Shown: positions 3,101 through 64,000 of the stretch, piece after piece
Layout: every line of letters begins with the position of its first letter
Numbering within the stretch: the first letter of the stretch is position 1
Source: Cyanidioschyzon merolae
Taxonomy: Eukaryota
Assembly: GCA_000091205.1 (NCBI GenBank)
Contig: AP006492.2
DNA: 64,000 bases
Direction: 5' to 3' (one strand)
Notes under the pieces: model-generated
The model's database searches: none
Told to the model about the DNA's origin: nothing
The model's input: the letters and a program-made list of their open reading frames with translations, nothing else
Translations under genes and position numbers: made by a program

Positions 3101-3375
3101 GAGTCTTTAACGCTGCAATCAATCTACGGAGATGTGCGGGAATAGACAAAAGACTCCCAGCGGTGACACGAGAGTCCATTGTTGGACAACCTCTTAAACT
3201 GGAACTATATGAGAAACAATGGTGTCCGCAGTAGGTGGCCGGTCGAAAAAGGCGGGAAGGCGTCTGCACGTCAGTTGGCGACTTCTTGTCTAGGGCGCGG
3301 TTGCCGCCACTACTGTACACTGTCGGCAGCAACGTTTTTGTTTCGAAAGATGTTTGTTGTCGTCGGCTGCGGTGG
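170..3375 (+). mobile_element. Fanzor/TnpB-like element, copy A (most degenerate of the three long copies)
   Basis: Collinear DNA similarity to copies B and C over the left end, the ~1 kb non-coding leader, the decayed nuclease ORF and the 3' conserved block (ggcgtctgcacgtcagttgg ... ctagggcgcg ... gccgccactactgtacac). Boundaries are approximate (+/-30 bp), judged by loss of inter-copy similarity. Confidence 0.6.
1199..3330 (+). pseudogene. Fanzor/TnpB-like RuvC nuclease pseudogene (copy A); multiple frameshifts, an internal deletion and an in-frame TAG
   Basis: ATG at 1199 in Kozak-like context (aagaagaagcaacATGG), conserved with copy C. Fragments in three frames match copies B and C: RFNVGQLCESKSHF, TNIITIAVPKR (RuvC-I region), FRTSYTHHELGCTLQ, RMEFANRVFNAAINLRRCAG (RuvC-III). 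In-frame TAG at 2658-2660 where copy B has TGG. Confidence 0.55.
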
Positions 3376-7774: not shown

Positions 7775-7781
7775 AAAAAAG
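7775..7781 (+). other. Candidate -1 programmed ribosomal frameshift site: slippery heptamer A_AAA_AAG at the junction of upstream and downstream reading frames of the copy-B nuclease gene
   Basis: Frame-0 codons are gaa|aaa|aag (7773-7781). The downstream conserved frame (frame 2) opens after TGA at 7769-7771 and codes EDWERRKAVLMGKRFNVVPM, conserved with copy C (EELGRRKAAIVGKRF). The upstream frame ends at TAA 7809-7811. Copies A and C change frame by -1 at the same place. Confidence 0.35.
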
Positions 7782-8128
7782 AAGATTGGGAGAGACGGAA
7801 GGCTGTCCTAATGGGTAAGCGCTTCAACGTGGTTCCAATGTGCAGCATCAAGTCACATTTCGTGAATATCGATTCGGACGTGTTTTACGGCATCATGAAG
7901 GAGATCAGTCCAGTGTTCACTGTTATCAGGGATGACTTCACCGGTGAAAACCGGGCGACGTACTTGAAGAACATCTTCAATTTCAAACGGCTCAAAGTGA
8001 GAAGCCAAAAGGTATTCACTGCGTTGATCGAGACCGATGGAGTAACCTTGTATGTACACTATCGGCGCTTGAAAGTGGACCGTCCGATTGTGCCTTTCGC
8101 TTCGCCCTCTGCGAAGCATTAAAAAATC

Positions 8129-8428
8129 AAAGAAGCGGATCCTGCGACACAGGAGGTGCAGGATGACGACTTTGTCGCTGACGCGGTGAAGGATGAAAAA
8201 GAGAAAGAGGCGGAACCTGTGATGCAGAAAGTGCAGGATAACGACCGTGTCGTTGGCGCGGTGAAGGATGAAGGTCAGAAGGAGGCGGATCCTGCCGAAC
8301 AGAATGTGCAGGATAACGACTTAATGGTTGACGCGACGAGGCATCAAGGAAAGAAAGAGGCGGATCCTGCCATACAGGAAGTGCAGGATAAAGACATTGT
8401 GGTTGGCGCGGATCCTGGGAACACGAAT
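8129..8428 (+). repeat. In-frame 75-bp tandem repeat, 4 units, inside the copy-B nuclease ORF just upstream of RuvC-I
   Basis: Units encode KEADPATQEVQDDDFVADAVKDEKE / KEAEPVMQKVQDNDRVVGAVKDEGQ / KEADPAEQNVQDNDLMVDATRHQGK / KEADPAIQEVQDKDIVVGADPGNTN. Copy C has a single unit (YEKEADPAIQKLQDSDFVVGLNPWNTN). Confidence 0.8.
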
Positions 8429-10585: not shown

Positions 10586-13500
10586 TCACGCAGTCGGTGG
10601 AGCTGAAGATGTCGCTGATTCCGAGGCGCTCGCAGACGTCGACACAGAAGCTGAAACTGAAGCACTCGCTGATGCACTCGTTGATGCACTCGCAGACACC
10701 GTCGCAGAAGCTGTCGCAGAGACTGTTGCAGACACCGTCGCAGAGGGTGCCGCTGTCACAGCCACGGGACTCGGAGTCGGTGTTGAACTAATCACCACAC
10801 ACTGGTTGTTGATGCACTCCTCGTCAGCGCGGCAGCAACGCACCTTGCTCACAAGGTTATCCGAAGGGATCAGGTACGTCCCGCACTGCTTCGTAGGGTC
10901 CTTGCACACACAGAATGACGGCAGCAGCACCTGTTGTTGCTGCTGTTGCTGCAGTTGCTGCTGCTGCTGCTGGTTGTTGTTGTTGCTGAACGGGTTGTAC
11001 GTGCAGTTCTGCGTCTCGGCGTTGCAGCACTCGGGGCCGCAAGCAATATAGCTCGAGTTCGATACGTTGCTAGTGGTGCCGCTCAGCGAGTTCGACACAT
11101 ACCCGTAGGTCTGGCACACGTACTCGGTCATCGGCTGGAAGCACTCGTTGCTGAGCCCCAGGCAGCAACCAGCCTCCAGACACTGCTGTGGCGAGTAGCT
11201 CGTGCGCTGCGTCCCGTGCTGCTCTCCGTACAGGAGCGTGTTCAGCAGACGCACAAACTGGTTGTTGTTGATGTTATTGTTCAGCTGCTGGTTCTGATTC
11301 ACCGCGTTCGTGCACGGCTGGCGCTCAAACTCGCCCACCGCGCACGTCTTCTCGGGCTGGAAGCAGTACGGGTTCGACTCAAAGTCGCTCTGCTGCTTGC
11401 CGTTCTGCACCCACTGGTTCTGCGCCTGCGAGTCGTAGCAGCAGCCCTGGGCATAGCACGTAAACTGGTTGATACCCGCGTTGCCGCACGGCTGGCGCTG
11501 CGCTCCCGGTGACGGGCAGACGGGTACTGGTGCCTGCACCTCCTGCAGCGCTACAGAGGCCTGCGGTGCATGGTTGATGTCGTAGTAGCACCAGGGTGCC
11601 AGGATGCCGTTTGCCGTTGGCTGCCAGCAGCATCCCGGTATCGCAGTGCACTCGTCGGGATAGATGTAGCTCCAGCCGCAGGGGACGCGCTGCGTCACTG
11701 GAACAGCGCTGCACGCCGCTGAGACGCTCTTCAGGGTGCACGCGTTCGTCTGGGAGTTAAAGCAGCACCCGACTTGCTCGCAAGCGTCCTGGTTTGTGTA
11801 CTGGCCCGGAGAACCGCAGATTTCACTCGTGCAAACTGGTGTTGGCGTTGCACTCGGTGTCGGGGTTATAATAGCAAGTGTCGCACCAGAGGGTAGAATT
11901 GTAGAAAGCTGGTCGGTGAAAGTTTGAAGCACACTTTGCAGTTCACTGGCGAGGGATGTGTCTCCTGAGATCTTAATCACATAGGTCACAACACTGCCGC
12001 CCGAAGTGCGCACCAATGCTCGTTCCAGACGAAGATTGCTCTTGTCTAATGTGGTGGCGAGGCGCCTTGATGTGCCCGAACCGAAGACCGTGTCGCAGTT
12101 ATCAGTCACGCTGACATTCACTACCTGGCCCGTGAAGCGAGCCTCGAGATCGTTCTGCAAATCCGTCGCCACGGCCAAACAAAGAGAAAGATTCTGAACG
12201 GATATCGCAATCGAGGTGGAAATCGTCGTCGGCACGATTGTTGGTGACGTTGTTGCAGTTGGAGTCATCGTCGGCGTCATCGTCACTGTCGTTGGAGACT
12301 CTGTTACAGTAATCGTTGGCGATGATGTAATTGTCGGAGTCATCGTCGCAGTCGGTGTCGGTGTAGGTGTAGGTGTAGGTGTCGGTGTCGGTGTCAGTGT
12401 AGGTGTCGGTGTCAGTGTCGCAGTCGGTGTCGCAGTCGGTGTCGCAGTCGGTGTCGGTGTCGGTGTCGGTGTCGCAGTCGGTGTCGGTGTCGGTGTAGGT
12501 GTCAGCGTGGGTGTCGGGGTCGCAGTAGCAGTTGGCGTAATCGTTGGTGTCAGAGTTGGCGTTGATGTTGGCGTAGGCGTAGGGGTAGGCGTAAAGAACG
12601 TTTCACTCAGTGCGAAAACATCATTGAGATAGCCAGGAATGCTAGTGTTTGAGTATCCAAATCCGCCAAACATGACCGGATCAGTCCCACTTGTGTTCCA
12701 GAAAACTGACCCAGTTCGACCGCCAGGCGAAACACTAGGGCTGGTCTTATTCAAAAATCCATATACGGAAAGTGCAAATCCATTTTGGCTGCCATTGATC
12801 CACGCCCACTGACCCAGTGTCATATCAAATACCCACAAATCGTTCAAATCACCGGGGCTCTCACGAGTATTCCCATATCCTTCACCACCAAAAAGTAGCA
12901 GATTACCCAAAGAATCCACGAAACTCACGCCTGAGTCTCTTGCACCAGGGTAACTGGTTGGGGCGAAAGCACCGAGACTTCCATAAGATCCTGGATTGTT
13001 AATAGTGGTATTCCCTGCGATAAAAATCCATACAGATTGACTTATGTTGTAGACCCAGAGATCATTCAACTTCCCTTGTCCTGGTGCTGTGCTGTCGCCG
13101 TAGCCAAGACCACCGAACATCCAGAGATTTCCTTCAAAATCTGTCCAGGTATTCGCGACGATGCGCGCACCTGGTGCACTCGAATTGTTCGCCACGCCAG
13201 GTGCGCTATAGTTGCCAGGCTGGTTAGCAAGTTGTGATCCGCCTCTGTATGCCCATTGCAGTGTAGTGGGATTAAATGACCACAGATCGGAGACAGAATC
13301 CCCAAGATTATTTTCACCACCAAACAACCAAAAAGTACCGTCAGCACCCAACCAGAATGATGCACTGCCTCGGGACCCAGGATTGTAGGAAGGACCAAAG
13401 ACGCCCTCCGCTCCATATATCGTGCCGGCATTTACCGTATCATTCCCGCTGACCCAAGTCCAGACTCTGCTTTCTGTATCGTACATCCACATGTCGTTCA

Positions 13501-14011
13501 TGGGGCCAAAGTTTGCATTCCGATCATAACCGAGGCCACCAAACAACCAGAAATGCTGCTCGTCCATCTGCCAGTACGCGCTTCGATAACGACTGCCAGG
13601 TGTATTGGCTGGGCTGCCTGTGCCGACTGTGCCGTACACTCCTGGTTGGTCGGCTTCTGAGGAACCTCCTATCCACGTCCATTCATGTGAGGTCAAGTTG
13701 AAGGTCCATAGATCATTAAAGTAGCTCAGATATGGGTTTCCACCCCCAACCCCGCCAAACAAGTATACCAAGCTCGAACTTCCGACCCAGGCTGCAGAAT
13801 CGTAACGGCCACCTGGAACACTATCTGCTGAAGTCTGGTTCAGCGTTCCATAATTACCAGGATTATCTCTACCCGTCTCTCCACCTATCCAGGTCCAGCT
13901 AACCGTACTCACAGGCGACAACGCAGCTACAAGCGACACGGAAAACGTGGCCGCCAACAATAGACAAACAGCAACAACCAGGCCACGTACCAGAGAGCGA
14001 GCTCGAAACAT
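10586..14011 (-). CDS. Secreted multidomain protein: signal peptide, Kelch/galactose-oxidase-like beta-propeller repeats, Thr-Pro-rich mucin-like linker, 3-4 trefoil (P-type)-like Cys domains, polyQ, and a Ser/Ala/Val-rich tail
   Basis: 1141 aa single ORF. The N-terminus [30 protein letters not shown] is signal-peptide-like. Recurrent ...YLFGG / WLFGG ... NDLW(T/S/V)F blades indicate Kelch repeats. (TPTPTP...)n lies at about 12240-12600. Trefoil-like modules show R-x-x-C-G-x9-C-x4-C-C-[YFW] ... P(W/Y)C(F/Y): [23 protein letters not shown]...APWCYY and [22 protein letters not shown]...NPYCFQP. Confidence 0.7.
12240..12600. repeat. Low-complexity (ACN-CCN)n coding repeat (Thr-Pro linker); mirrored on the plus strand as the spurious (GV)n ORF 12216-12632
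   Basis: gtcggtgtcggtgtaggtgt... periodicity; encodes [11 protein letters not shown]... on the minus strand. Confidence 0.8.
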
Positions 14012-17000
14012 CTCGTTCGACGCTCTCTCAGTCCAATAAATACGGGTATTTGTTCTTTCTTGCGTGAATATATCTTCACTATTGTTTTTTCGTTATGGTC
14101 AACACGAACGTAACCACCGTGTGTTGTGAAAGCCAAAACAACAACGCACAAAGTGATAGCGCCAAAAACGCGAAACGCGCGCGCGCACTGCAGAGGAATT
14201 TGAATTGGGGTCATCATGATGCGATGAAGAATTCACGTTGATGTCGAGACTGGAGCGTAACGGACGTAGGGAATTCGGGGTACATAGTCCGAAATATTCA
14301 AGTTGAAAGAGGTACTGAAAGCTATATATAGGCTAGTGGGATTTCATTCGAATGAGTAACTCCCGAGTACTGCTCCTTCCAGGTGCGAGTCAGCAGGGTT
14401 CAGCAGGTCACGGCTCTAGGTAAGAAGGATAGCGAATAACGAACTATCAGTTGCTGAGGCTCGTCCACCACCCGAAACGCAGAAGTACCCCAATAGCGTA
14501 TTTTCTATCTCTTTTTTGCGAAATGATCATATTGGAAATATTCCGTGGTACTGCGAGTGTTTTGCAGTCCTTTTCTGGTGCAGACACCGAAGCAGAGTAG
14601 TTGGAAGGTTTGTGTAGGTCTGTACCATTGGTGTTTGTTTTAGATACGAAACATCGAATAATGAGCTCCTGCGTCTCTATTGCGAGGAAAACTAAGAAAT
14701 ATTTCTCGCGTGGGAAGTGGTCTCTCTTTAGGGACAGGCCGTCGTCGTTCGAAGTGGAACGCATATACGCGTACCCATGCTTCGACCTTCAACCTACGAA
14801 GCGAGAATTCGTAGGTGTTTTCTTCATCTAACCTCGTTCGGCCTAAGCTTGGAGCCATGTGTATCAACCGCTTCTGGCAAGCCGAGCACCAACAAGCATT
14901 TTCAAGGCTCGCGCAGACTGGTGATCCGCGGAGGATGCTGGCCCAATCGGAGACTTCATAACTTTTCATCCAGTTTTCCAACAAACGCTCCGTGTCATAT
15001 ATTTTTATATCTGCTACCTGCAAAGAAGGATCCGTTGCTGCAGATGACTCTATCTAGTTGAGTGTCAGCCTCACGGTAGCGCACCTACCCCATAGTTTCT
15101 CGGTACCGATCAATACCTAGTCTCGCATTTCCGAGTGGGATCTCCGTTGGACTTTGGAAACTCCATAGTCTGAATTGGTCTTTCGAAAGCAGCCAAAGCT
15201 ATTCTTCTACGTCTGCGGATTTGTTAATCGAGAATTGAGCATGCTTGCCTGCTTGATCAGTGTCGTTTTATGTGGAGCAGCTTTTACTTGAAATTGTCTG
15301 GTATGATGTCCAATCATATTCCCAGAAGCGTCGCTCCATCTCTATTTGGGTGACTAGCGGGCAGGTTAGAGCCACCAATACATGCCCTCCTCTACACGAC
15401 AATTTCCCCAGCAAAATCCCGGAATGTCTCCATGTAGTTATCGATCCATCAGCTGGACAGGGCCATCAAGTCTACAGACCAATTCCATTTTGAATTTCCA
15501 CCTTACTCGGTTTATGATGCCAGCACTTGTTTCGCAATGTGCTTTTCATACAGCACATTCCCCAGTACACATCCTATTTCCCAGAACTCTCTATCCGGAA
15601 ACCTTGCCCCGGATTCCTTGTTCTCTTTTGTCGACGTACTTGCGCGAGGCACGATCACTAGCTCTGTCAGTCAGCGGAGACATTATTCAATATCTTGGCC
15701 TCTCGCATTGATTTCTGTTCGATGCCTCGCTGCGACCGCTTCATCGGAGGTTATTCGGAGTTTCTCGCATATGAAGGCGCTTTCGAGGGTGGAGAGCTTC
15801 CTCATGCTATTATTCAGCGTCTGCAATATTGTGTGCAATCTAGCTTGCGGGCTGCTTGCGTGGTTCAGCTGCTTGCCCTGCTGTATTCTGTATGGAAAGA
15901 AAACAGATGCTCAATCCGTTCTTGCAACTTGATATTTGGCAGTTATCCCCGGCAGTAGAAGATGAATGCCTAAAACATCCTTCTATTTAACAATTTACCT
16001 TCTCGGGAGAATCTGCCTCCATCCGGTAAAAGCTGTAGAGGTGGTGCATCTTGCTTCCTCGCCGTGGTGGCAGTTTTCAAACACGACACACGTTGCTCTC
16101 CGTCAGCACTGCCTTCCCCTTACACACGGGGAAGACGCCGACGGTCTTCATGGCATCCTCGTAGTCCAGCTCCTTCGTTCTCGACTCTCGGTTGCTTTCG
16201 TTCGGCATAAGCATTCTACTGATATATCCTGAAGCAGCGTCCGGATGCTAAGACGCACTTGTGCGAAAAGATGGAGTACTCTGGAGCTCGTAGTACCTGC
16301 GTATACTCGGAAGTTGCCGCTCTTCTTTTCCATTGTACGCATGCAGCTCTTTCCGTGCCGGGATATTCTGGTGCGATACATACGTCATACGCCCGAAAAG
16401 AATCACCGAAAGCATGTTATATTATGTACCAGATCACACAATGAGCTCCAACAATAGAGATGCCCAATTCTGAGCGCTTTACTCTATATTCCAGAGCAAA
16501 TGCGCTCTCTGCAGTTGCCGCAAATGTGCTCTTCTCGGATGACGACCGCCTTCAGCATTCTCTGGCGCATTCAGTGCGAAGCAGTTCATAGCTATCACTA
16601 TACTAATCACTATTGCAGTACGCTTTATGACTTGCGAAGCATTGTTGGCTCTTCACATCAGGAGGAGCGCCCTCTCACTCGTTTAATATCCGATCGAATG
16701 TGCGGCAGGCCGCCTACTTGGTTCACCGTTGCTCCCACATCCGTCCTTGATGCAGCGATGTGCGCTCCGAAGGCGCCTCTCATCTTCGAAGCCATGAAAC
16801 TTCAGACAAGGGCCAAGATATTCGACTTTGGGCCTCGCCGCCGTAACGGCTGGTCCACAACGTCAAGATTCAGTTCGTATAGCTGATCTGCCTTGTCGAT
16901 TTCGTACGTTGGTTCAATAACCTGCGGTTTCGTCTTCTCTCGACCTTCCGTATATTCGCCACGCCACTGAAAATACGAGCCCGAGTCCGAGAAGCGCCCC

Positions 17001-17047
17001 TGGGTCGCCACTTCGACTACGCGGCGGCTGGCCTCCTCATTCGGAAT

Positions 17048-18061
17048 CTATTCCCGAGTGATGTACTTCTGAAGAATCGGGAAGAATATGTTGCGGAACC
17101 TGCCACGCTTTTCACGTAAGAGGTTGCTATCGGCGACACATCCCGGGAAAATCGCCACAGGGGTCACCCCGTCGCGGCCGTATCGATCACTGAGCGCCTT
17201 CATTGTCAATACGTTGGCGGCTTTGGCGTCTTTGTAGGCTTTTGTGGGCTCAAACGGACTATTCTCTTCCATGCCAGTCGTCCGCGGTCCGAGTCTTGCG
17301 TCGACACCAGACAAATCACCAAGACGAGCCTGCGGGGGGATCTTTCCCGGCAGCGAATTCGGCGAGTGGGTCTGAGTCGTCAAGAACACAATGCGCCCGC
17401 GCAATATTTTCAGCTTCGGCAACAGCTCCCGACATAGAAGCAAATGGCTCAGATGGCAAACCTGTATGGCCTTCTCGATGCCGTCCACCATGAAACGCGG
17501 TTTCTTGTCCCGCGGATGCCATATTGCGGCATTGCAGATAAGGGCATCCAGGTGATCGACGCGCGCCACACTCGATAGCTCTCTCATAGACTTCAACACA
17601 GAGGCGAAATCAGCCAGATCACAATGCAGCACTGTATAGGCGTCCTTTGGGAGGTTCACGCTGTTTGCTGTGCGTTCCGCCTGACCAATGTCACGACATG
17701 CCATGACGATGTGCCAATTGCCCTTGTTGATCAGAGCGCGAGCTGCATACAGACCGACCCCAGAGGACGCGCCAGTGATCACGGCGATCTGCGACTGTTT
17801 CGGGCCCATACGAAGATGCAGCATACGATGCCGGCGCGTTACAGGCGATCGCTGCACCATCAAGGGTAGCGGATGCTGGAAATGGTGACGATGTACAGCT
17901 GTGAAGCACCTGTCACGTGCGGTACGCAGCGGAAACGGTGCTCGAGTTGCAGCGGGTGCGCCAACTATGTGTTTTTCCTGGCACAGCGGAAAACAAACCA
18001 ATACGTCTTGCAGTTTTTTGGGATAGATTTTCTTTGGTGGTAAAGCTGCCAACTTCATCAC
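17048..18061 (-). CDS. Light-dependent protochlorophyllide oxidoreductase (LPOR)-like short-chain dehydrogenase with N-terminal transit-peptide-like extension
   Basis: 337 aa: IAVITGASSGVGL (NADPH Rossmann motif), NAAIW, YKDAK (SDR catalytic Y-x-x-x-K). The C-terminus GVTPVAIFPGCVADSNLLREKRGRFRNIFFPILQKYITRE closely matches the LPOR C-terminus (...YPGCIATTGLFREHIPLFR.LFPPFQKYITKG). Related RDH/WWOX-type SDRs are not excluded. Confidence 0.7.
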   Translation of the reverse strand: MMKLAALPPKKIYPKKLQDVLVCFPLCQEKHIVGAPAATRAPFPLRTARDRCFTAVHRHHFQHPLPLMVQRSPVTRRHRMLHLRMGPKQSQIAVITGASSGVGLYAARALINKGNWHIVMACRDIGQAERTANSVNLPKDAYTVLHCDLADFASVLKSMRELSSVARVDHLDALICNAAIWHPRDKKPRFMVDGIEKAIQVCHLSHLLLCRELLPKLKILRGRIVFLTTQTHSPNSLPGKIPPQARLGDLSGVDARLGPRTTGMEENSPFEPTKAYKDAKAANVLTMKALSDRYGRDGVTPVAIFPGCVADSNLLREKRGRFRNIFFPILQKYITRE

Positions 18062-18363
18062 CGACTAAAGTCGTTCGCGTACGCATACATTTCCAGGGAG
18101 AAATCTCTTTTTCGTTGCTGCACGAGTGATCGCCCATCAATTGCGCAGAGTCCGACTTGTAACTCCCGTAGACTGTCTAGCGTTGAGCGCATCGAGCACA
18201 AGCGCTCAATGTCTTCCACAGAGACTAGGCGAAACTCGCGGTTTGCCGTGCAATAATCTCGTCAGTACTGGTAACTCAGTGCTCCGCATTGTTGCGCTCA
18301 GATAGCGCAAAGATCGTAGTGGCACGATGCTGCACCCCGGGGTACGGCGCCGCGGACACGCAA

Positions 18364-18530
18364 GGGAATTCCCTCCGGCGGGATGATTTCGGTGCATACG
18401 CATCTGGTAAGGCGATGGTTCGAACAGCAGAGCCATTAGGGAATTCCCTCCGGCGGGATGATATCGGTGCATACGCATCTGGTAAGGCGATGGTTCGAAC
18501 ACCAGAGCCATTAGGGAATTCCTTCCGGCG
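18364..18530. repeat. 75-bp tandem repeat (about 2.3 units) abutting the 5' end of element copy C; the unit shares its first ~17 nt and a ggttcga(a)cag motif with the element left terminus
   Basis: Units start at 18364 and 18439 (gggaattccctccggcgggatgat(t/a)tcggtgcatacgcatctggtaaggcgatggttcgaaca(g/c)cagagccatta). A third partial unit gggaattccttccggcg runs directly into the element (ttatgcttttttggttcgacagaacgtttctactgacc). Confidence 0.8.
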
Positions 18531-21500
18531 TTATGCTTTTTTGGTTCGACAGAACGTTTCTACTGACCATGCATCCCATGTTTCCGGGTCGATATTGGCT
18601 TTCGGGAAAGCGTCCATCATGTTGGACTACTTCTGCACGTTACATCGCTTTTGCTTACTCTCTGCTGTACTGGTCGTCTCATTTTTTCTATTGTGCGCCG
18701 GTTGCCTGCCATGAGCACCCGCCGTAGCATCTCTATCGCTGGTGCGGATGCGCTACGAAAACAGAACAGCTTTGGCATACCACTGAGCGCGTCGGAAGAG
18801 GCATTGTACAAGCGATACGGAATCAGGGCTATGTATATTTTTGGGAGCCTCCAATCTGGACAGGCTGACCTTCTGCCTGTGGTAGCGGGAAGCGGTATTG
18901 TAGGATTCCTCCGCAACCAAGGTGATGCCCAGACCCAGTATACGCGCTCCTAGTGCCAAAATCAAATGCGTTTCGGACGAGGTGCTCAGGTGCGTCACAT
19001 CACCCACCACCGCAGAGTCACACGGCGTACAAGCCGGTAGAGTCTCGCGGCTTGCAGACCTCGCGCCTAAAAGGCAACTGTTTGACCAAACGCAAAAACA
19101 TCCTGCTTTGAACGTTTATTGTAGATGGCAATAGAACTTGCTATTCCGTTTGTGGATATTGGTTAGTTTTCGGCATTTTCTATTTCGTGCGCCCTGGCAA
19201 CGCATCTCGGAATCTGGCCGTCACTTCACACGACGTTCTTCTCGCCGATGATGCGAAACGCGGTAATGACCTCTTTTGGAGCTATCGCTCTATCGGGGCC
19301 AGTTGTATTTGCGCTCGAATCGTAGAGAAGGATAGTTTCGGCTTCAATTGTGTTTCATACTTCATGTAAGGATATTTAAGTGATTTCAGCCGTTCAAAGC
19401 AGAAGCGTCCAATGTGTTCTCCCCCAAAAAACAAAAGGTAGACTCATGTAATTGGAAGTAGAGGGTTTTGGATGGCCGGTGTTGCCCGAAGTTAGAAGAA
19501 AACGAGGAACAGTGCCTCGCAAAGAGAAACAGGACAGGAAGAAGAAGCAAATGGGGGAGGCCTTTTGTCGATGGCTGCAAGAGTGACGTCTCTACGATGA
19601 GATGGTGGTGGAATCCTGTCTTCTTCGACGTATAAAGGATCCGTACGAGGGAGAGTTGCGAGACGCTATGAGAAACCGTGTCGACTTGTACTCCATGAGT
19701 ATTTCCAAAGCGTCGTCACGACTGATGCATTTGGCGAGGGAGATGTACGAAAACGTGGCGCACTTGGGAACGGCCGAGATTCCGGCGATTTTTTCGATAA
19801 GACCTTTATTCGACACCTGATGCTTGCCACAGCGGAAACGCGGAGGGAAAATGTGCTAGTCCATGGCCTTAACGAAAAACATCCCTTTTACAGGTTCGAG
19901 GCTACTCGATACAATGCTGACCGGGATATTTACATGTACGGAGCGATGAAGTATATCACGAACCTGAAGAATCTTTTGGCAGTGAACCTCGAACGTTTCA
20001 TGATACGCACCGTGTCTGCACACTGCCCGGGCATCTCTCGCAAAGGAGTATGGGCGATTATCAATGGCATCACGAACGATCGTAAGCGTGAAGATGAGGT
20101 CGAATTTGTCAGGGAGAAGGCGTCATGCAGGAGTACGAATGGACTTCTGTAATCCGTGCGGCTATACAAGAGCACCGCGCAGTCTTGGGGTTGGCGAATC
20201 CAACAGACAAGATGTCAGACTTGAAAAAGATAAGGAAAGATACTATCGCCTCATCCTGCACTATTTCGTGTTTTTAGACCGTGAACTCGAACGCAAGGCA
20301 GCGATGAAGCTGAGTGGGGAAAAAATGAAGAGTTGGGGAGACGGAAGGCGGCCATAGTAGGGAAGCGCTTCAACGTGGTTCCAATGCGCAACATCAAGTC
20401 ACAATTTGTCACCATCGACTCCAGAACCCTTCATGGCATCATGAGAGAGATCAGTCCCGAGTTCAATGTTAACAGGGCGGAGGTGACCCGTGAAACCCGC
20501 GAGACGCACTGGAAGAATCCCTTCGATTTCAAACGTCACAAAGTCAGCAAACAAAAGAAATTCACCGGGATGATCGAAACCGATGGATTAGCCATGTGTG
20601 TACACTGTCGGCGGTTGAAGGCAAATCGTCAAGTTCCGTCTTCGATATTGCCCGTTACGAAGCATGAATATGAGAAGGAGGCGGATCCTGCGATACAGAA
20701 ACTGCAGGATAGCGACTTTGTCGTCGGCCTTAACCCCTGGAACACAAACATTATAACCATCGCTGTACTAAAGCGTCCGGAAGATTGCACCGACGGCAAC
20801 TTACGTCAGAAATATATGCGTCTTCTGAGGTTCTCGAGAGCAATATACAATGGAGAATCCGGTATGATCAATGCAAGGAAGAAAATCGAGACTTGGACTT
20901 CAGGAATGAAGGATCAAATGGAAGCTTTGAGCGAGGTGACGAGCCGCGGAGCGGACTTTGAAGCTTTTCTGAAATTCATGGAAGTTCGCATTGCGCATTG
21001 GGATGCGCTGTAGGAGGAGTATACAAAGCCTCGGTGGGCTCGTTTGCGTGTGAACTTGTACTGCGGGAAGCAGCGTGCATTCGCGAACTTTTTGAATGAA
21101 TTGAGTGCCTTGAAGAAGGATGAAAGTCAGAGGCTCGTAGTATCGTATGGGGCAGGACGCTGGGCGTCGAAGAAAGGGACTACACGTGCTCCAACCACAA
21201 GACCGTACAGGGAGTGTGCACGACGCTTCGTTACGATACCGATAGATGAGCTCCGAACATCGTATACTCACCATGAACTGGGACGTACACCTCAAAAAGT
21301 CGAGATGGAAAAGTGTCAGCAGAGCCCTGAGGATATAAAAAAGTACGGACCGCTGACGGAGGAGCAAATGGAAAGGAAGACGAAAGTTCGTGGACTCCTT
21401 GCATTAGTAAGTACAACCAATAATGGCAAGGAACGTATGGGGTTTGTGAACCGAGACTTTAACGCCGCCATCAATATCAGGAGATGCCCTGTGATGGAAA

Positions 21501-21718
21501 AAAAAAGACCCCCAGAGTCGACACGAGAGAGAATTCTGTTGGACAACCACCCAAAGTGGAACTATATGAGAAAAAGCTGGAATAAGTCGTACGTGGCCGG
21601 TCCAAAAAAACTGGGAGGCGTCTGCACCTCAGTTCCAAACGTTCTGACTAGGGCGCGTTTGCCGCCACTGCTGTACACCGCTGGCGACGTTCGACTTTAG
21701 AACAGCGTTGATGGTGCT
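18515..21718 (+). mobile_element. Fanzor/TnpB-like element, copy C
   Basis: Collinear with A and B across leader, ORF and 3' block. The right end (...gcgacgttcgactttagaacagcgttgatggtgctgcg) is shared with fragment E up to ...gttgatg(g/a)tgct and ends within about 4-8 bp of the WD40 gene ATG (21722). Confidence 0.65.
19551..21700 (+). pseudogene. Fanzor/TnpB-like RuvC nuclease pseudogene (copy C)
   Basis: ATG at 19551 (caaATGGGGGAGG). In-frame TGA at codon 12. Frameshifts near 19815 and 20100, plus the family-wide -1 junction at about 20320. In-frame TAG at 21011-21013 (copy B has TGG). The C-terminal part is continuous: IDELRTSYTHHELG...GKERMGFVNRDFNAAINIRRCPVM (RuvC-III). Confidence 0.6.
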
Positions 21719-21721
21719 GCG

Positions 21722-23482
21722 ATGAACCGCGTCCTCCTTGATCGTCTCTTTCCTTTTGTTCGAGCGCAGGTTCCGGAACAAGTCGAGTTCTCGCTGAGCG
21801 AGCACGGTACGGGTCGTTGTTTCGCTTTTACACCGCTCTACGGGAACGTTCTTGCAGTCGGACTCGCTGACGGCACCATTGCGTTATATGACCTCGTAAC
21901 GAGAGCGCTTGCCAAAAAGCTCTACGGACACACGAGCGACGTGTTCTCGCTAAGCTTTGTGCCACGCTCTACCTGGCTGTTGAGTACGTCTCTGGACGGC
22001 AGCCTGCGCCTTTGGGATGTATCTCAGCTGCGCTGCATTGTCTGCGTGCGCTTCGAGGCACAACTTGCGAGAGCTTCCGCACATCCACGCTTTCGGCAGA
22101 ATCGCCTGTGTTGCGTCTCACAGACTGGCCAACCGGTTCTTCTGGTACAGCTGCCTGTCGAACCAGGAGAGTACCATGTGACTCAGTGCCCGTCTGTTTG
22201 GGTGCTGTGGTCGGGCCCCGCATCCACGCTGACGATGAGTGCGCAGGAGCGGACTCCGACTGAGACTTTACAAGTACCGGAGTGTGCACACGTCCATGCT
22301 TCAGACACCGAGGACGGCAACTCGGTCTGTACGCGGAACTCGGATGCGCTCCCACCGGTACCTGAACGTGCACCACTGCTTCGAGAGCTCGGTACGCACG
22401 GCGCTGTGGAGTTGCCGCCGACGCTGACGGGAAGCATCACGATGCCAGTAGCGTACTTGGCTGCTGAATTCGACCCCACTGGTGCCTACATCATCACACA
22501 TGCTGCAGAGCAACCTGGTCTCTTGAAGGTTTTCAAGATCGAGCGCGCTACAGAGGCAGGCTCGGGTCCGAGGCTCACCGTTCACTGTTCCGCATCGTTC
22601 GCACTGCCGCCCCGTGCATTCGTGAAACAAATACAATTTGCTGAACGAGGGGACCTGTTCCTGGTTGTGGCGCATGATCGAATTGTTCGGGTTTTTGAGT
22701 GGAAACCGTTCGAACCGAACAAAGTAAGACTCTGGCGAGAGCTGAAAGATCGCGTTTCCTCAGTACAATGGCGATGGGCTGCATTCGCGAGCCACGACGA
22801 ATTTCTAGTTGCTGGAACAGCGGCAAGCGCTGACCATCGCCTCTATATTTGGGATCTGAAGGCGAATCAATTAGTGAAACAATTGGATGGGCGCCCCAAA
22901 GAGTCCCTCAGTATGCTAGCGTACCATGCGAATCTTCATGCACTGCTAGTCCTGGTGTATCAGAGTGGCTCCATTCTTGTCTATCACAAGACCGTAGCGG
23001 AGAACTGGAGTGCATACGCACCATCATTTCGAGAAGTATCTGAAAATGTCGAGTATGTGGAGGCAGAGGATGAATTCGACTTTGACCCCGACGGGAGCAG
23101 CGTATATGATCGCCGTCGTCGCAAACATTTCGCTCCAGCTGATGAGGATGCTACCGTGGTCGACATAACCGGGAGGCTCCCCGATTCTGATCCTGGATAC
23201 CAGCGATTCGCGGAAGCCGGCTGGAACGCGTCGTCATCGTCGTCCATGTCGTCGTCCAATGAGGAGCTGCTCTGTCTACCGGTAGACATCCCGCTGGATC
23301 TACCTCCGTTAGCATCAGAGGCTTCCTGGATCGGCGAGTATCGCGCGCTACGCAGACACGAATCGGAACAGCAAAGCTGCAGCGCAACGACGCTTCGACA
23401 AGACGATGCGTCGGCAGGTACCTCAAGTCAGGCAGTCATGCGCACTGTACGTGATGATCCTGCCGGCCAGCTGGCCAAATAG
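21722..23482 (+). CDS. WD40-repeat protein
   Basis: 586 aa. It contains GLADGTIALYDL...GHTSDVFSLSFVP...STSLDGSLRLWDV and a later ...DHRLYIWDL, which are typical WD repeats. No further family assignment. The start codon abuts the element C terminus. Confidence 0.7.
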   Translation: MNRVLLDRLFPFVRAQVPEQVEFSLSEHGTGRCFAFTPLYGNVLAVGLADGTIALYDLVTRALAKKLYGHTSDVFSLSFVPRSTWLLSTSLDGSLRLWDVSQLRCIVCVRFEAQLARASAHPRFRQNRLCCVSQTGQPVLLVQLPVEPGEYHVTQCPSVWVLWSGPASTLTMSAQERTPTETLQVPECAHVHASDTEDGNSVCTRNSDALPPVPERAPLLRELGTHGAVELPPTLTGSITMPVAYLAAEFDPTGAYIITHAAEQPGLLKVFKIERATEAGSGPRLTVHCSASFALPPRAFVKQIQFAERGDLFLVVAHDRIVRVFEWKPFEPNKVRLWRELKDRVSSVQWRWAAFASHDEFLVAGTAASADHRLYIWDLKANQLVKQLDGRPKESLSMLAYHANLHALLVLVYQSGSILVYHKTVAENWSAYAPSFREVSENVEYVEAEDEFDFDPDGSSVYDRRRRKHFAPADEDATVVDITGRLPDSDPGYQRFAEAGWNASSSSSMSSSNEELLCLPVDIPLDLPPLASEASWIGEYRALRRHESEQQSCSATTLRQDDASAGTSSQAVMRTVRDDPAGQLAK

Positions 23483-30200: not shown

Positions 30201-33200
30201 CGAGGGCGACTAAATCCGTTGAGCAAGTGCATCCAAAGGCCGAGCAAGCTCGTTCGTCCTTTGCCTCCACACTATCGTTCGCTGAGTAGCGTCATTGCGA
30301 CGAGCACTCCCCGCGGCACACGACCTCCTTCTCCGCGTCATACATGGACTCTAAATGTCTGTAATGCTTTCGCTGATTGGACAGAAATGCAGACAAGCCA
30401 GGTACGCAATGAGCGGCAGAATTGACGGCCCCGGCCCCGCAGAGCACGATGCATGCGCTCTTAGTACGCTGCAAAGACTGGCGACCTGAGACCTCCAGCG
30501 CAAACGAGATTGGAGGCTTGTAGGTGTTCGCGAACCCAAGCGAGCGCTGCCCAGATGCTTGCTGTCGCTCGAGGCCCGCACCCCTGATACGTAGAAGGGT
30601 GTGCACGATCGGTCTAGCAGCGAAAGCATTGCGTCCGAACCGCGCTCAGTGAGGCCGCCAGCCAGCGGGTACGCAACCAGTTATACGCAGGACCTCCAAC
30701 GATCACCGCAAATTCCATGCATGAGATGAGAGAGCTCCGGCGTTCTACTTCGTGTTCGGATATAGCGGCCAAGAGAAGCACCAAAGATGCTGCACATGAA
30801 GAGACGCCTTAGCGCGCACGCAAGTTGGCCAGCGGATCCGTCCGCGTTTGCAAAGTAGCTGATAGCGTCGCGACGCTTTTCGAAGCCGCTCCAGTAGACG
30901 CAAGGTCCCTAGCGAAGAATGCCCTATGGCTACTCGGGAGACATGAATCTCCGGGAGGCACACTAGCCAAGAGGCTTGCTCATTCACGTACTCAGCGAAA
31001 AGAAAACAAACTGCCCGCGTTCAGCGCAAGCTCATGGTTTTCGCAGCGATCGCGTTTCGCGTATCGTCAACGTGCATTCCGCAACGGTAGTGACCCGCCA
31101 CCACTCCTGTTACCGCTCTCAAGGCGAGCTTCACAACTGTTGCTTGTCGGGTATCGTACGCGACCGCACCGGAACGACCTGGGACTGACTGCTGACAAGT
31201 CCATAAGCTCAATGGCCGGAACTCTTCAAATGGTGAGTCTCTCGAAGTTCACCCCATACATGAACACGCAATTGTCGTCTCCCAGGGTCCGATCCCGCAT
31301 TCGATGCTTCTGTGCAGCTCGAGCACATCACTCGATCCAGCCCTGCAATCGGGCAATAGTTTCCAGACAGTCCAGTATTACCTCCTGTTGCTCTTCTGCC
31401 TTCGCATCAGACTCCAAGAGCGCCCGGAAACGTGCCGTGGGGCGTGTCTCGGCGAAACGTCGGCGACATTGTGGAGGCTTCTCATGAAAAACCACAGCGC
31501 TAGCGACGCTCTCCGATATATTGGATTGTGCAGCAGCACTCCCAGGCCTATTTCTCTCGAAGCATGCCTCGTTTCCCGGTAAAACGTCACGCGAACTTGA
31601 GGGCTGACCAATAGAGCTCGCGGGCCCCGCCCGCTCCCTGGGGGTTACCGACGAAGACGTGCTGGCAGCCTCAGTCGAGTTCCGCGCTGCTGCTTCACTA
31701 GTCTCTGCGTCGAGACGTGGCCACCGCCGCCGACGCTCCCTGAGATACGCATCCAGCACCTCAGGTGGTGCGTCTCTGGTTGGAGGCTGAGGCATCGTCC
31801 CGCCGGCGCCGTGTGGCTTGCGGCCTGGAGGCCACCACTGCGGACCAGCGCCTCCGGCACAGCCCCGTCGCCAGCGCTGCTGTAACCCGCTCTCCGTGGG
31901 CATACGGAGCGGTCTCCGAACTTAACAAGGGCCAATACACGCCTTACGAGATCCACGGACGACCCTGAGGCGGCAAGTCTCGTCCAAGGCGACTGCTGGT
32001 CATGGAAAACTGCTCCGGCGGAATCACACGTTTGCGTCAACGAACCGCCGTATAGATTGCAAAGCAAGCGTCACCTCGGCGTTACCTAGGAAAGCAACGT
32101 CTGACTGTAAACGGGTTTCTTTCTGGCGGGCCGTTTCCGACCTGCCAACAGCGCTAACGAACGAAAATCTATAGCGTTGCTGTTGCGGCAGGATCTATGC
32201 ACCTCTTTCGTAGATGGGATGGAGCCTCTTTCATGACCTCTTCATGGGCTTTCCGTTCAAATTGTTCTGCAACAAGGTACGTTGAGCAGCAGAAGATGGA
32301 CTTCAATATGCAGTGTACTCTATAGATCGTAGAAGAATTGCTTGTAGGATACACATTCTTTCCTGAAGAGTTCCAGGAGAACTCGAATTCTCCTTCGGAT
32401 GAGTCTTAACACAGTACACAGATGCGTGATTCACACGGAAAGAAAGAATCAGATGCGCTCCGCTCCAGAAACCGATATTTTCAGAGACTTTTTGAGGTCA
32501 CTGGTAGAGAACAACTGATTGATCGCTATAGAGAAAACCCGAGCGGCGAGCATGGACACCACGGGAGTCTCTGTTTCTCAACAGCTCGTTCCCGGGATCC
32601 TGAAAACACTGGGATACAGTCGGAAAAATGAATCCTATTTCAAGCACGGCCGTCTTGCACGGAAATCGCAACGGTAGCATTCCTGGAAAGCCGCTATCCG
32701 GAGAAAGCACCGGAACGTCGGTTTGTTTTTCAGTCGATGACACTTGCTTCGGATGAAACGGTCAGAACGTATATTGGTAATCGCGGAGACAGAGCATGTT
32801 ATCTGTACGAGTGAGCTCGAAGAGAACAAAGATATCATCATCGATTCTAGCTAGAGTGGATACACTCGGCGGCGTCAGTCGCGCTCGTGGAGCAGGCTCG
32901 CTCGACAGCACCCATTGGCCTAATAATTGAATACTTTTCACCTGAGGTCTGGTGACGTCCTTCTATTGAACAACGTAGCATTTCGCCATCCACTTGCGGT
33001 TGGGATTCTGCCGATTCGATCAAGGGTTAGAGTAGCTTTCCATTCCTGCGCACACTCCATGTTTCAACCCTATTGCATGAGTGTTTTCTATTGTGAATCC
33101 TATTGATCGCTTCAGTGGGCAAATCGCAAAATCGCTCTGTACAGGGTGACACTCTGGCACATGGTGTCTTTCATCCGCATTGACCATCTCCTCCGGCAAG

Positions 33201-33229
33201 GCCCTCATATAAGGGTATATAGAAGCGCG

Positions 33230-33660
33230 TTCATTTCCAAAAAAAAAATAAGGAATGAGCCGCAGTGCGCACTTCAGTAGGCCGAGATGGAGCGCCGGCA
33301 GCCAAGCGCATCGGTAATAGAGAAGCACGCAGAGCTGACAGAGCCCCAAATGGTACTAATGGCACGAGTTCGAGGAATCGGTGTACTGATGAGTTCCATT
33401 AGAGGCAATGCACGCATGGAATTCATAAACCGAGGCGTCAACGCCGCCACCAACATCAGGAGATGTTCAGCGCTCCAGACGAGACCTGCGGAGCATTCGC
33501 GAGCGAACGTTATCGTGATGCTTCTCAGGCTCCAAGTTTGCATGGAGAAACTGTAACCGATAGCAGGGAGCCGGTAAAAAAGGCTGAAAGGCGTCTGGGC
33601 ATACCTATTAATTTCCATTAGATGCTCGTGAAACGTTGTCGCTCCATCGGGCATATTCCA
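33230..33660 (+). mobile_element. Short 3'-end derivative of the Fanzor-like element (fragment D)
   Basis: ORF 33287-33556 encodes ...TEPQMVLMARVRGIGVLMSSIRGNARMEFINRGVNAATNIRRC, a decayed RuvC-III NAAINI region, followed by a diverged ggcgtctg block. It shares a subfamily-specific sequence and the same 5' breakpoint (...cacttcag(t/a)aggccgagatgg) with fragment E. Confidence 0.5.
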
Positions 33661-36076: not shown

Positions 36077-36392
36077 GTTCCAGTCCGTGCGGTAAAATCG
36101 ATGCGGTAAGCAACATATTATGAGACACGAGTGGACAGTAATGGATCGATTGCCTTGCATGCCGTGCGGTAAGATTGATGCGGTAAGTATCCAATTATGG
36201 GACAAGAATGGTCAATAATCGATCGATCATGATGCATGTCGTGCGGTAAGCTTGATGCGGTAAGTATCCTATTATGAGACACTAGTGAACGACCATCCAT
36301 AGATTGCCTTGCATGTCGTGCGGTAGGAACGATGTGGTTAGCATCATATTATGAGACAATCATGATCAATAATCGATCGATCACCTCGCACG
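36077..36392. repeat. Tandem repeat, about 80-bp subunits x4 (alternating two subunit types, effectively ~160 bp x2), in the 5' flank of the FkbM methyltransferase gene
   Basis: Recurrent gtgcggtaag(a/c)ttgatgcggtaag(t/c)a...attatgagaca... with the alternating blocks ggatcgattgccttgcatg and gtcaataatcgatcgatca. It generates the spurious overlapping ORFs 35943-36300. Confidence 0.8.
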
Positions 36393-37575
36393 CTAACAAG
36401 AGCACACTTCTCACAGACACGCACATCCCGCAGCTGGCAACTATACAGTAACACCAAAGCGATACTGGATTTGCATATCGCTACAGACGCGTACCGATAC
36501 CTGTCTTGGACTCAAAAGGATAATGTATTCTTGAGCAGAAGCGGATTCAATGGGAATCAATCCTGTTTCCGTACCAGGATGCCCTCTGCGCTGTACGAGC
36601 GCCTCGAAAGCATGTTCCCGCGGCGCAGAAGCGCGCCTGCGCAAGGCGATCAACGAGGGCGAGGTTGTCCAGTGGCCACCAGCTGTCGCGAAATTCAGCA
36701 CGCGTCCACGCGACTGTGTGGATCACGTGCCCGACTTCGTGCGTCGTGGCATTCCTGGTAATGCATCTGTGCTTGATACCATGCGCGTACATACATGAAA
36801 GTGCTTCATCTCGACGTTGCACCCAGAGCACGGGAGCCTGTGTCCTTGGCGCAGCACGGACCGGAGACGCAACCGTTCCAGGCGCCTCGTTGTCACAGAT
36901 GCAGCTCGAGCGCACGCGTCGGCTCATGCATGCGCAATGGAGAGCATCTCGAATACGTGCAAACGGCATACCAGCAACGAATTAAGATGCAACGGGTGCG
37001 CGGAAACTCGGCAACTGCAACGAGGGCGCCTTGCGCATGGATACAGTCGCACGGGGTGCGCTCCTGGAAATGGTATCCTAGAGCGCGCACCGTGCATTGC
37101 CAGCGTTGCCTAAACTCAACGTTTTCAGAGCAATTACTCCCTAGCTGCATGCAGCTACCAGCATGCCTCTTCGGAACACCGGCCTCTGCTCGACATCGCA
37201 TCATTTACCTCGGTGGTACCAGTTCAAAGTTCTCGGGCGGTGTTGCTCAAGAACGACTGCCGCCGGAAGTCCACGCTGCTGCAAGATTCGTGACCGTTCC
37301 TCTGTAGATGCTCTGAAAGAACGGGCGCGTCATCATAGAACATTCAAAATCATGCCAGTATCGCCAAATGGACGCCAAACCGCCTACCAGTACTGGGGAC
37401 GCATTGGAGCACCAGAGGCTTGATCAGCCCCGGACGTGTACGTCAACATCGCGCTGACGTGAGCATCGCATACCTGGGTGGACGCAAAACGCCCGGATCG
37501 TGGTGACCATGTCTCCAGATAAACCGATGCGACTTCAAGTCCGCAGCCTAAATACGCGATTCATGATGCATACGA

Positions 37576-62742: not shown

Positions 62743-63435
62743 TCATCGCGAGTCGTCCGTTTCGGTACCCCATACACGATAGGGTCGCTTCTGCAGCGCG
62801 GAATTGTAGTATCGTTCGTCGAGTGTGACCTCGTCCGCCAACCAGGTCGGCCGCTCAAACGCCGTCTCGGGGGTTGGCAGCTCGATCTCCGCGAGGATAA
62901 GAGGAGCATTATCACCCAAGAACTCATCGATCTCCCAAACAAGGCCAGCTTCCTTTGCCGGTATTCGATAGCGCACTTTTTCGATAAGTGGCTGTACACA
63001 GAGTGTGTTCAACAACTCTCGAGCGTCCTCGACTGGGATCGGGTACTCGTACTCGGCCCGCGTGCAACCGTGGGTGCGTCCCTTGATCGTCAAGAAGCCG
63101 CTCATGCCAGCAACACGGACGCGTACGGTGCGGTCGGGTTCACTGCACAGGTAGCCTTGCGCGAGATGTGTGCCCTGCGAAGTGCACAACAGCCGACGAA
63201 CTTGGTCAGCGTGCACCAGAAACTTGCGCTCAGTCTCGCGGTTCGCTGCGCGGTTCACCCCACCGTGTTGCATTCGCGGAGCACTGGATCCTAAAAGCAC
63301 CGAGATTTTCGAATCTAGCTTTAGAGTGTGAACTCGAGGAGGAGGAGACCACCTGAACGTGGTGCGCCCAAGAAACGGCCGTGCAGCAGGCACGAAGAGC
63401 ATCATCAACGTCGTTCGAAAGTCGAACGACGTCAA
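62743..63435 (-). CDS. CYTH-domain protein (CyaB/thiamine-triphosphatase-like triphosphate tunnel metalloenzyme)
   Basis: ETERKFLV (the CYTH hallmark E-x-E-x-K near the N-terminus) ... RVRVAG...FLTIKG ... EYEYPIPVEDARELL ... LVWEIDEF ... LILAEIELP. The likely start is Met at 63273 (MQHGGV...), giving about 176 aa; the upstream 54 in-frame codons are uncertain. Confidence 0.7.
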   Translation of the reverse strand: MTSFDFRTTLMMLFVPAARPFLGRTTFRWSPPPRVHTLKLDSKISVLLGSSAPRMQHGGVNRAANRETERKFLVHADQVRRLLCTSQGTHLAQGYLCSEPDRTVRVRVAGMSGFLTIKGRTHGCTRAEYEYPIPVEDARELLNTLCVQPLIEKVRYRIPAKEAGLVWEIDEFLGDNAPLILAEIELPTPETAFERPTWLADEVTLDERYYNSALQKRPYRVWGTETDDSR

Positions 63436-63890
63436 CGGTGTACAGTAGTGGCGAGTGACCCGCCCTAGTCAGAACGTCTCCAACTGACGCGCAGAAGCCC
63501 CACAGTCCTTCACAACCGGCCACCTACTACTGCGTCCAACTTTCTCTCAAATAATTCCACTTTGAGAGATTGTCCAATAAAGTTCATTCTTGTCGAGTCT
63601 GGAGGTCTCGTCTGCAGCACCGCACATTTCCTTCTATGGATAGCGGCATTCAAGTCTCGCTTCACAAACTCCGTACGTTTGTTGCCCCCGTTGTTTGTAC
63701 TTACTAATGCAACAGGCCCTCGAACTCGCGCCCTTCTTTCGATTTGCTGCTCAGTCACCTCTTCGTGCTTTTCTACCGCCGATGCGCTCTGCAGCCTGCT
63801 GCCCATCTCGACCTTCTGAAGTGTGCATCCCAGCTGATCCCTTATGTTTTCAAATTAACGCAAAGCTTTATGCGGTTAGGTGAGAACAGT
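63398..63890 (-). mobile_element. Short 3'-end derivative of the Fanzor-like element (fragment E), minus strand, same subfamily and 5' breakpoint as fragment D
   Basis: ORF 63510-63806 (-) encodes ...VEKHEEVTEQQIERRARVRGPVALVSTNNGGNKRTEFVKRDLNAAIHRRKCAV (RuvC-III region). The reverse complement of 63436-63510 matches the 3' conserved block (gcgtcagttggagacgttctgactagggcg...gccactactgtacacc). The terminus ...cgttgatgatgct is shared with copy C. Confidence 0.5.
63408..63432. other. Perfect 11-bp-stem / 3-nt-loop palindrome (aCGTCGTTCGA aag TCGAACGACGt) at the subterminal right end of fragment E
   Basis: Read directly: 63409-63418 cgtcgttcga, loop 63419-63421 aag, 63422-63431 tcgaacgacg, with flanking a/t extending the stem. 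The homologous position in copy C (cgacgttcgactttagaacagcgtt) is a degenerate version. Confidence 0.7.
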
Positions 63891-64000
63891 CCCCGAGGGA
63901 GTCGGACCTGCGCAGGAAAGACAAAACGTGCCACCGGTTTGTATCCGTGTGCTGGAAGCCGCATTGATTCGCCCAGTGGATCGATCATTCCGTTGCACGA

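Follow-up and report, generated by a model that had tools for sequence, protein, structure and literature searches.

The 64,000-nucleotide stretch of Cyanidioschyzon merolae contig AP006492.2 analysed here (64 kb; the window) contains several copies of a dispersed repeat, the last of which, fragment E, carries a perfect palindrome at positions 63408–63432. Comparison of the window with itself revealed three long direct copies of the repeat (A, B and C), spanning 3.2–3.4 kb and 65–78% identical to one another, together with two fragments (D and E). The gene that they carry is, from sequence-profile comparison, that of a Fanzor1 protein, the eukaryotic TnpB. The repeat has a constant order: the Fanzor1 open reading frame (ORF), a non-coding tail of ~130 nt, a hairpin to which the palindrome corresponds, and, 2 nt later, the junction with host DNA.

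Repeat copies and the palindrome

For comparison, 267 related loci were found, and 80 of these were compared (labels L001 and so on). The parts of fragment E and its surroundings are as follows.

63407–63838, minus strand: fragment E, the final ~430 bp of the element (self-blastn, ORF 63510–63806 and comparison with L081)
63407–63527, minus strand: conserved non-coding tail of E, a putative omega/fRNA (guide RNA) scaffold with the hairpin last (nhmmer tail profile, E=2.5e-32, and tail alignment)
63407–63432, minus strand: right-end terminal hairpin of E, ACGTCGTTCGA-CTT-TCGAACGACGT plus T
63839–64000, minus strand: 3′ part of module X, an unrelated 5′ module joined to the 3′ end in the D/E subfamily (comparison with L081)

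In fragment E, the tail and the hairpin are preceded by what is left of the Fanzor C-terminus, which includes the motif KRDLNAAIH. The palindrome, ACGTCGTTCGA-aag-TCGAACGACGT, is a perfect 11-bp stem with a 3-nt loop (11+3+11 nt), as a sequence-only reading of the window had proposed. The 64 kb contain 44 short inverted repeats, and of the 25 longest, no other is a perfect stem–loop with separate arms of at least 11 nt; roughly estimated, the chance expectation for such a hairpin at one loop size is 64000/4^11, or ~0.015. On the minus strand, the hairpin is directly followed by T and then by GATGATGC, which the sequence-only reading had given as gttgatgatgct.

The remaining copies lie on the plus strand.

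156–3354, plus strand: long copy A, a pseudogene with mutated RuvC residues (D to S, E lost, RD to RV)
194–213, plus strand: left-end motif of copy A, TTTTGTTTGTTTCGACAGAG, resembling its own right-end hairpin
3331–3354, plus strand: terminal hairpin of copy A in the T-rich 'type 2' register, AACGTTTTT...AAAGATGTT
5960–9383, plus strand: long copy B, with D/E/D retained but broken by frameshifts and stops
5960–5986, plus strand: left-end hairpin of copy B, CGTTTTTT-(11 nt)-AAAAAACG
9263–9383, plus strand: conserved tail of copy B, with its terminal hairpin at 9360–9383 (tail profile and alignment)
18537–21709, plus strand: long copy C, a pseudogene (RuvC-I D to N)
18544–18560, plus strand: left-end motif of copy C, GTTCGACAGAACGTTTC
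21589–21709, plus strand: conserved tail of copy C, with a degenerate 'type 1' hairpin at 21684–21709 (tail profile and alignment)
32308–33600, plus strand: module X (32308 to ~33243) and fragment D (33243–33600) (self-blastn and comparison with L081)

All three long copies are disrupted by frameshifts and stops, and catalytic residues have also been lost from A and C. The element copies in the window are dead relics.

The tail and the terminal hairpin

The tail that follows the ORF, GTGGCCGGTC...GGCGTCTGCACGTCAGTTGGAGAC...CTAGGGCG-loop-CGCCACTACTGTACAC, is succeeded by the hairpin, after which similarity stops. A profile of the tail has exactly four matches in the window (A, 3231–3360; B, 9263–9388; C, 21589–21715; E, 63527–63403) and 90 in the related loci. 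All four window tails have a hairpin, those at 3331–3354 (A), 9360–9383 (B) and 21684–21709 (C) being homologous to that of E, and it is present in ~59 of 70 distinct tails of the related loci, which derive from hot-spring metagenomes. The degenerate version that the sequence-only reading had seen in copy C is therefore one instance of a hairpin found family-wide; all that is private to E is the perfection of its pairing, one G to A change having turned the family's G.U pair into A-U. The association with the tail is close: allowing up to five substitutions, the hairpin motif is matched 72 times in ~770 kb, and 69 of these matches follow the tail core, the other three being E on the opposite strand.

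We rejected the possibility that the tail is coding sequence, because the frames that are open across it differ from copy to copy and the stops fall at variable positions. In L009, which has the longest ORF (778 residues), the stop lies 45 nt before the tail.

The right end can be fixed to the nucleotide from two loci from different metagenomes. L010 (2127–3108) and L031 (1–982) align without gaps over 982 nt, with 8 mismatches (99.2% identity), as far as ...TAGAACGGCGTT, past which each continues into an unrelated and unique flank. Only two nucleotides of the element thus lie beyond the stem, its end being ...GGCGTT, so that the hairpin, which had been described as subterminal, is terminal. 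The window elements end after 3354 (A), 9383 (B) and 21709 (C), and by analogy with the L010/L031 breakpoint, the junction of E with the host would lie between 63407 and 63406. Non-orthologous copies of the family have a median identity of 83.5%; against this figure, the 99.2% of L010 and L031 suggests recent movement of a copy whose RuvC-III motif is already altered (RDFITAINI), although a strain-level rearrangement is another possible source of the pair. The first five positions of the flank (+1 to +5) are weakly G/T-rich, at 0.3–0.6 bit per position, which we read as a target preference.

The hairpins take two forms, which occupy the same position but pair in different registers. Type 1, CGTCGTTCGA-CTT-TCGAACGGCG, has one G.U pair, and E is its perfect variant; type 2, AACGTTTTTC-TTTT-GAAAGGCGTT, has two. 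Folding predicts a hairpin in ~38 of 40 distinct ends, with a mean energy of -8.8 kcal/mol for the sense RNA and -5.1 kcal/mol for the antisense; the sense strand is the more stable in 36 of the 40 (Wilcoxon p=1.5e-7), a count and a p-value that overstate independence because the sequences are related by descent. The antisense strand lacks the consensus G.U pairs of the sense strand. Among non-Watson–Crick cells, 55 are G.U and 9 are A.C, most of them inherited consensus wobbles.

The encoded protein

The ORFs of the copies contain GADPGNTNIITIA, VDEFRTSYT and VNRDFNAAINIRRC, corresponding to the motifs GADPGNTN, VDEFRTS and NRDFNAAINI. A repaired protein used as query returned 58 close homologues, mostly from Joint Genome Institute (JGI) metagenomes, and the window copies are 55–78% identical to members of this family; a profile search of the whole library gave 4446 cluster representatives at E<=1e-3. 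When a 33-member family profile was compared with the PDB, it matched PpFz1 of Parasitella (9cf0, E=1.7e-22), SpuFz1 of Spizellomyces (8gkh, E=4.6e-19) and GtFz1 of Guillardia (9cer, E=6.6e-12); PDB searches with a single protein or a 7-sequence profile gave no match. The DPG, DEFRTS and NRDxNAA motifs, present in the family and in copy B, align with the catalytic IDPN, DEYKTS and NRD of SpuFz1. The Cas12f1-like TNB domain (PF07282) was detected in 14 of the 33 relatives (best E=9.8e-9), and in the window ORFs only at E=0.09; the CxxC ligands of the C-terminal zinc ribbon are largely missing in this clade. Because the profile matches solved Fanzor1 structures and the D/E/D residues align, we conclude from these comparisons that the repeat-borne gene is Fanzor1. 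The suggestion of the sequence-only reading that the repeats resemble TnpB-carrying elements is borne out to this extent. An AlphaFold model built from a 7-sequence alignment had a predicted local distance difference test (pLDDT) score of 44.9 and was for this reason not used for a fold search.

Just before the Fanzor RuvC-I motif, at 8113–8412 and 20659–20733, there is a 75-nt (25-residue) acidic tandem repeat, KHEEKKEADPATQKVQDNDFVV, with four copies in B, one in C and up to five in relatives (P0001 and P0014).

The family fits one already described. CMe-1A of C. merolae has ~150 copies of ~3 kb, each ~80% identical to the consensus (Bao & Jurka 2013, PMC3627910). It was reported to be without terminal inverted repeats (TIRs), with target-site duplications (TSDs) undetermined and class unknown, and no termini, hairpins or target sites were described; its 5′ 635 bp are identical to a separate element, TE-N2_CMe (PMC3627910). 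In the repeats studied here, a 5′ module of ~620 bp occurs also by itself. The repeats fit CMe-1A in length, age, copy number, host group and 5′ TE-N2 module, the match being to the published description rather than to the consensus sequence. They are alike as an old Fanzor1 family of a cyanidiophycean red alga, with many copies of ~3 kb that are ~80% alike, no TIRs and a 5′ ~635 bp that is a separately repeated element. To the published account, the present comparison adds the right end to the nucleotide, the terminal hairpin, the ~130-nt tail and further subfamilies with other 5′ modules. We regard both the kind of element and the family as already known, the end structure being newly described.

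Left ends and 5′ modules

The sequence-only reading had also claimed that each long copy has a left end resembling its own right end. The resemblance itself exceeds that of shuffled sequences, the observed score being reached by 0 of 2000 shuffles for A, 1.7% for B and 2.1% for C, but it is not specific to the copy: own left/right pairs score 16.5 on average and non-own pairs 14.7. As own pairs do not stand clearly above the others, the similarity reflects a motif of the family, with a few left/right variants that are shared within one copy, such as TTTGTTTCGA in A. The long copies begin with a T-run and the hairpin-like motif, followed by a TE-N2-like module, and upstream of their left ends there is no common motif except the T-run. 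In copy B the TE-N2-like module extends from 5960 to ~6580, and the Fanzor unit begins near 6631 at a fixed point, (G)CATCG/CGCTCGGTGAGCGC, where a small hairpin can be seen by eye; [G/C]ATCG is seen at the Fanzor-unit junction.

At other loci, the start of the Fanzor unit is joined to a module 'a', a module 'b' or an inverted TE-N2. The truncation of module 'a' differs in extent among loci, and in L033 and L069 a 5′-truncated tail with its hairpin lies upstream of it. In the D/E subfamily, the final ~440 bp of the element are fused to a module X of ~900 bp. Module X at window positions 32308–33290 matches L081 1134–2092; that of E runs on past the end of the window, as seen in L081, a contig 99.3% identical to the window end. 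We therefore rejected E as a simple 5′-truncated copy, since E and D have module X in common upstream. Fragment D belongs to the same chimeric subfamily but is cut ~40 nt into the tail and so lacks the hairpin. Internal-deletion derivatives are present as well. Across all subfamilies, with at least four different 5′ modules, only the 3′ end, that is, the tail and hairpin, is common.

Comparison of the window with the 80 related loci gave no match of 90% or more. The left flank of copy C (14887–18455) occurs also in L033, L069 and L077, at 79–85% identity; on the right, the flanks of these three loci resemble neither the window nor one another, which suggests that dispersed copies have recombined ectopically, or else that the assemblies are chimeric. 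All three sites are occupied, and neither they nor the CYTH orthologue loci described below yielded a base-level empty site or a target duplication. Directly upstream of the left end of copy C, at 18363–18533, lies a 75-bp tandem repeat of 2.3 copies, 97% identical, starting AGGGAATTCCCTCCGGCG. The motif GGAATTYCCTCCGGCG is found as well ahead of the truncated tail of L033 and L069 and upstream of the left ends of A, L014 and L077.

Proposed function of the hairpin

The guide RNA of the Fanzor and TnpB systems characterised so far derives from a conserved 3′ non-coding region that extends to the right end of the element, with the flank acting as guide (PMC10432273, PMC10530073). By analogy, the tail described here would be transcribed together with its flank as an omega (guide) RNA, and since tail and hairpin occupy the place of the known guide RNA, the hairpin would form the scaffold stem nearest the guide, with the adjoining host sequence supplying the guide. 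The hairpin is probably also a cis-acting end signal for one-ended replicative mobilisation by machinery provided in trans, because it is the sole cis element common to the subfamilies and the elements encode no transposase. With the protein family, the exact right end and the conservation of the hairpin in place, we think it reasonably probable that the palindrome is the right (3′)-end terminal stem–loop of a CMe-1A-like Fanzor1 transposon family of the Cyanidiophyceae, probably acting as the last stem of the omega RNA scaffold, as the cis signal of one-ended replicative transposition, or as both. The likeness to the characterised Fanzor1 omega RNA systems (SpuFz1 8gkh, PpFz1 9cf0 and GtFz1 9cer) extends to the protein family at profile level, with the catalytic D/E/D aligned, and to a conserved non-coding region that follows the ORF and reaches the right end. 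The differences are very low sequence identity, the absence here of most of the zinc-finger cysteines and a carrier transposon that may be of another type.

Several observations weigh against this assignment. The sense bias in stability rests largely on three inherited wobble positions, and derived changes in the type 1 hairpins have added G.U and A.C pairs about equally often, so that no bias appears. When covariation was assessed on a hand-drawn structure of the tail, 7 pairs had changed on both sides, compared with 8.7 expected from shuffles. RNAalifold, applied to 4 and to 59 tails, gave a weak consensus with a consensus stem of only 3 bp, and a search of Rfam returned no family matches. 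At ~12 loci (L001/L041, L016, L019/L017/L080, L032, L047, L058, L059/L060 and L076/L077), the tail stops at most a few nucleotides from the hairpin's 5′ foot, where unrelated sequence takes over; the scaffold may therefore end before the hairpin, and these loci may have an alternative terminus or have lost the palindrome by recurrent deletion. Finally, a similar hairpin motif lies at the left end of the TE-N2 module with no Fanzor gene adjoining, which points to a DNA-level or end-recognition role over one in a guide RNA.

Another candidate is a rolling-circle, one-ended element of the Helitron2-like or IS91-like kind, in which the hairpin would be a single-stranded DNA (ssDNA) signal, the origin or terminator for an HUH Rep encoded elsewhere, with Fanzor as cargo. 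We judge this possible but distinctly less probable, and it is compatible with a guide RNA role. The constant 3′ end, the excess of 3′ ends, the variable or truncated 5′ modules, the internal deletions, the T-run preceding the left end and the recurrence of the hairpin motif at the left ends of the long copies in direct orientation are all in keeping with it. So too is the strand bias, since G.T pairs are tolerated in ssDNA. There is also a precedent in the Chlamydomonas Fanzor1 families CRe-1/2/3, non-autonomous Helitron2 elements that insert after TTTT, are truncated at the 5′ but intact at the 3′ end and carry a hairpin at each end (PMC3627910). These are the closest published analogue, alike in their Fanzor1 cargo, intact 3′ ends, 5′ truncation or internal deletion, hairpins at the 3′ and 5′ ends and T-rich site upstream of the 5′ end.

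The present elements depart from those families, however, in lacking convincing asymmetric TIRs and in having the hairpin at the terminus rather than ~10 nt or more inside it. The candidate asymmetric TIR, CGCGCTCGGTG at the start of the Fanzor unit and CACCGCTGGCG before the hairpin, is by eye complementary at 8 of 11 positions without co-variation, and we rejected it as evidence. No RepHel partner is known in red algae, and the Replitron paper reports no related Rep in these organisms (PMC10288648); we saw no RepHel or HUH gene, though no genome-wide search was made. Canonical Helitrons have 5′-TC...CTRR-3′ ends and a hairpin ~10–12 nt ahead of the 3′ end; the classical Helitron that the sequence-only reading had considered is disfavoured, as the present element ends in ...GGCGTT and its hairpin lies 2 nt from the end.

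Stringent long interspersed nuclear elements (LINEs) recognise a 3′ stem–loop with short repeats after it. If the hairpin were an RNA 3′ stem–loop bound by a reverse transcriptase, the repeat would be a non-autonomous element spread by retroposition in the manner of LINEs and short interspersed nuclear elements (SINEs). The 3′ tail common to subfamilies with truncated or swapped 5′ ends, the greater stability of the hairpin on the sense strand and the G/T-rich flank with short repeat-like runs past the hairpin, such as TGTTGTTGG and GTTGGTGTGTG, would suit this explanation, as would the reported association of Fanzor1c with LINEs (PMC10530073). We nevertheless consider it improbable: no reverse transcriptase was seen, the hairpin is followed by neither poly(A) nor a clear microsatellite tail but only by the weak composition bias (0.3–0.6 bit per position), the flanks of L010 and L031 diverge at once without a tail repeat in common, and no target duplications are documented.

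Membership of the classical IS200/IS605 'peel-and-paste' group, another proposal of the sequence-only reading, would have left and right hairpins bound by a Y1 TnpA. Like IS608 and ISDra2, the repeats have a TnpB-family gene beside a right-end hairpin, which would likewise fall within the sequence coding for the guide RNA, and in the long copies each end has a hairpin, both on one strand. No Pfam domain, Y1 TnpA included, was found in the ORFs of the 5′ modules, to which the search was confined. The left end, moreover, varies and is not conserved across subfamilies, there is no conserved target motif of 4–5 nt beside the left ends of the long copies, nor a defined target tetranucleotide as in IS608 and ISDra2, and the host is a eukaryote. 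With no transposase domain encoded, we regard this origin as very unlikely.

Neighbouring genes and other repeats

One host gene lies next to fragment E.

62743–63273, minus strand: host CYTH-domain gene, outside the element (ORF, domain and homologue searches)

Its ATG is ~135 nt downstream of the hairpin of E on the same strand. That spacing and the short G/T-rich motif after the hairpin are all that would commend a chance or regulatory palindrome of the CYTH gene, or the attL/attR-like cores of site-specific integration that the sequence-only reading had entertained, and we give such explanations hardly any credence, since the hairpin accompanies the element into dozens of unrelated flanks, both tail and hairpin are absent from the CYTH orthologue loci L083 (Cyanidiococcus) and L084 (where the intergenic DNA is not alignable), and no core common to both junctions was found, the left/right similarity being that of the non-copy-specific hairpin motif in direct orientation.

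The CYTH protein has a 100% match in two JGI metagenomes and is 75% identical to that of Cyanidiococcus yangmingshanensis and 53% identical to that of Cyanidium caldarium. The nearest non-algal relatives of this red-algal gene are betaproteobacterial CYTH proteins, at ~60% identity, and the gene may have been acquired by an old horizontal transfer.

Between the right end of copy C and the ATG of a WD40 ORF of 586 residues on the same strand, there are only 13 nt (21709–21724); copy C abuts or replaces the 5′ region of this gene, and an exact-protein look-up of the ORF returned no record. On the minus strand, ORF 10586–14011 encodes a protein of 1141 residues that by eye is Kelch-repeat-like and cysteine-rich and looks like a host cell-surface glycoprotein; at 12278–12595 this ORF contains a long tandem repeat, rich in Pro and Thr, whose periods are 12 and 18 nt. 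A further tandem repeat, of 77 bp in ~4 copies that are 75–81% identical, occupies 36086–36393.

Significance of the terminal hairpin

For the window, the palindrome is to be read as a transposon relic rather than as a host regulatory element. For the family, the constant 3′ end combined with variable 5′ ends narrows mobilisation to one-ended replicative mechanisms, in an element that Bao & Jurka left unclassified with unknown ends (PMC3627910). Knowledge of the right end to the nucleotide places the putative guide start at the host sequence immediately after ...GGCGTT, and the terminal hairpin with the ~130-nt tail is a concrete candidate omega RNA that is testable in Cyanidioschyzon, a genetically tractable thermo-acidophile. 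A bolder proposal, which we advance as speculation and think rather unlikely, is that the CMe-1-type elements constitute a distinct eukaryotic class of one-ended mobile element, in which a single stem–loop is both the last stem of the guide RNA and the only cis signal for replicative spread, with at least one lineage (L010/L031) still moving. If true, the right end would have a double use as it does in IS200/IS605 elements, here in a eukaryote and without a two-ended transposase.

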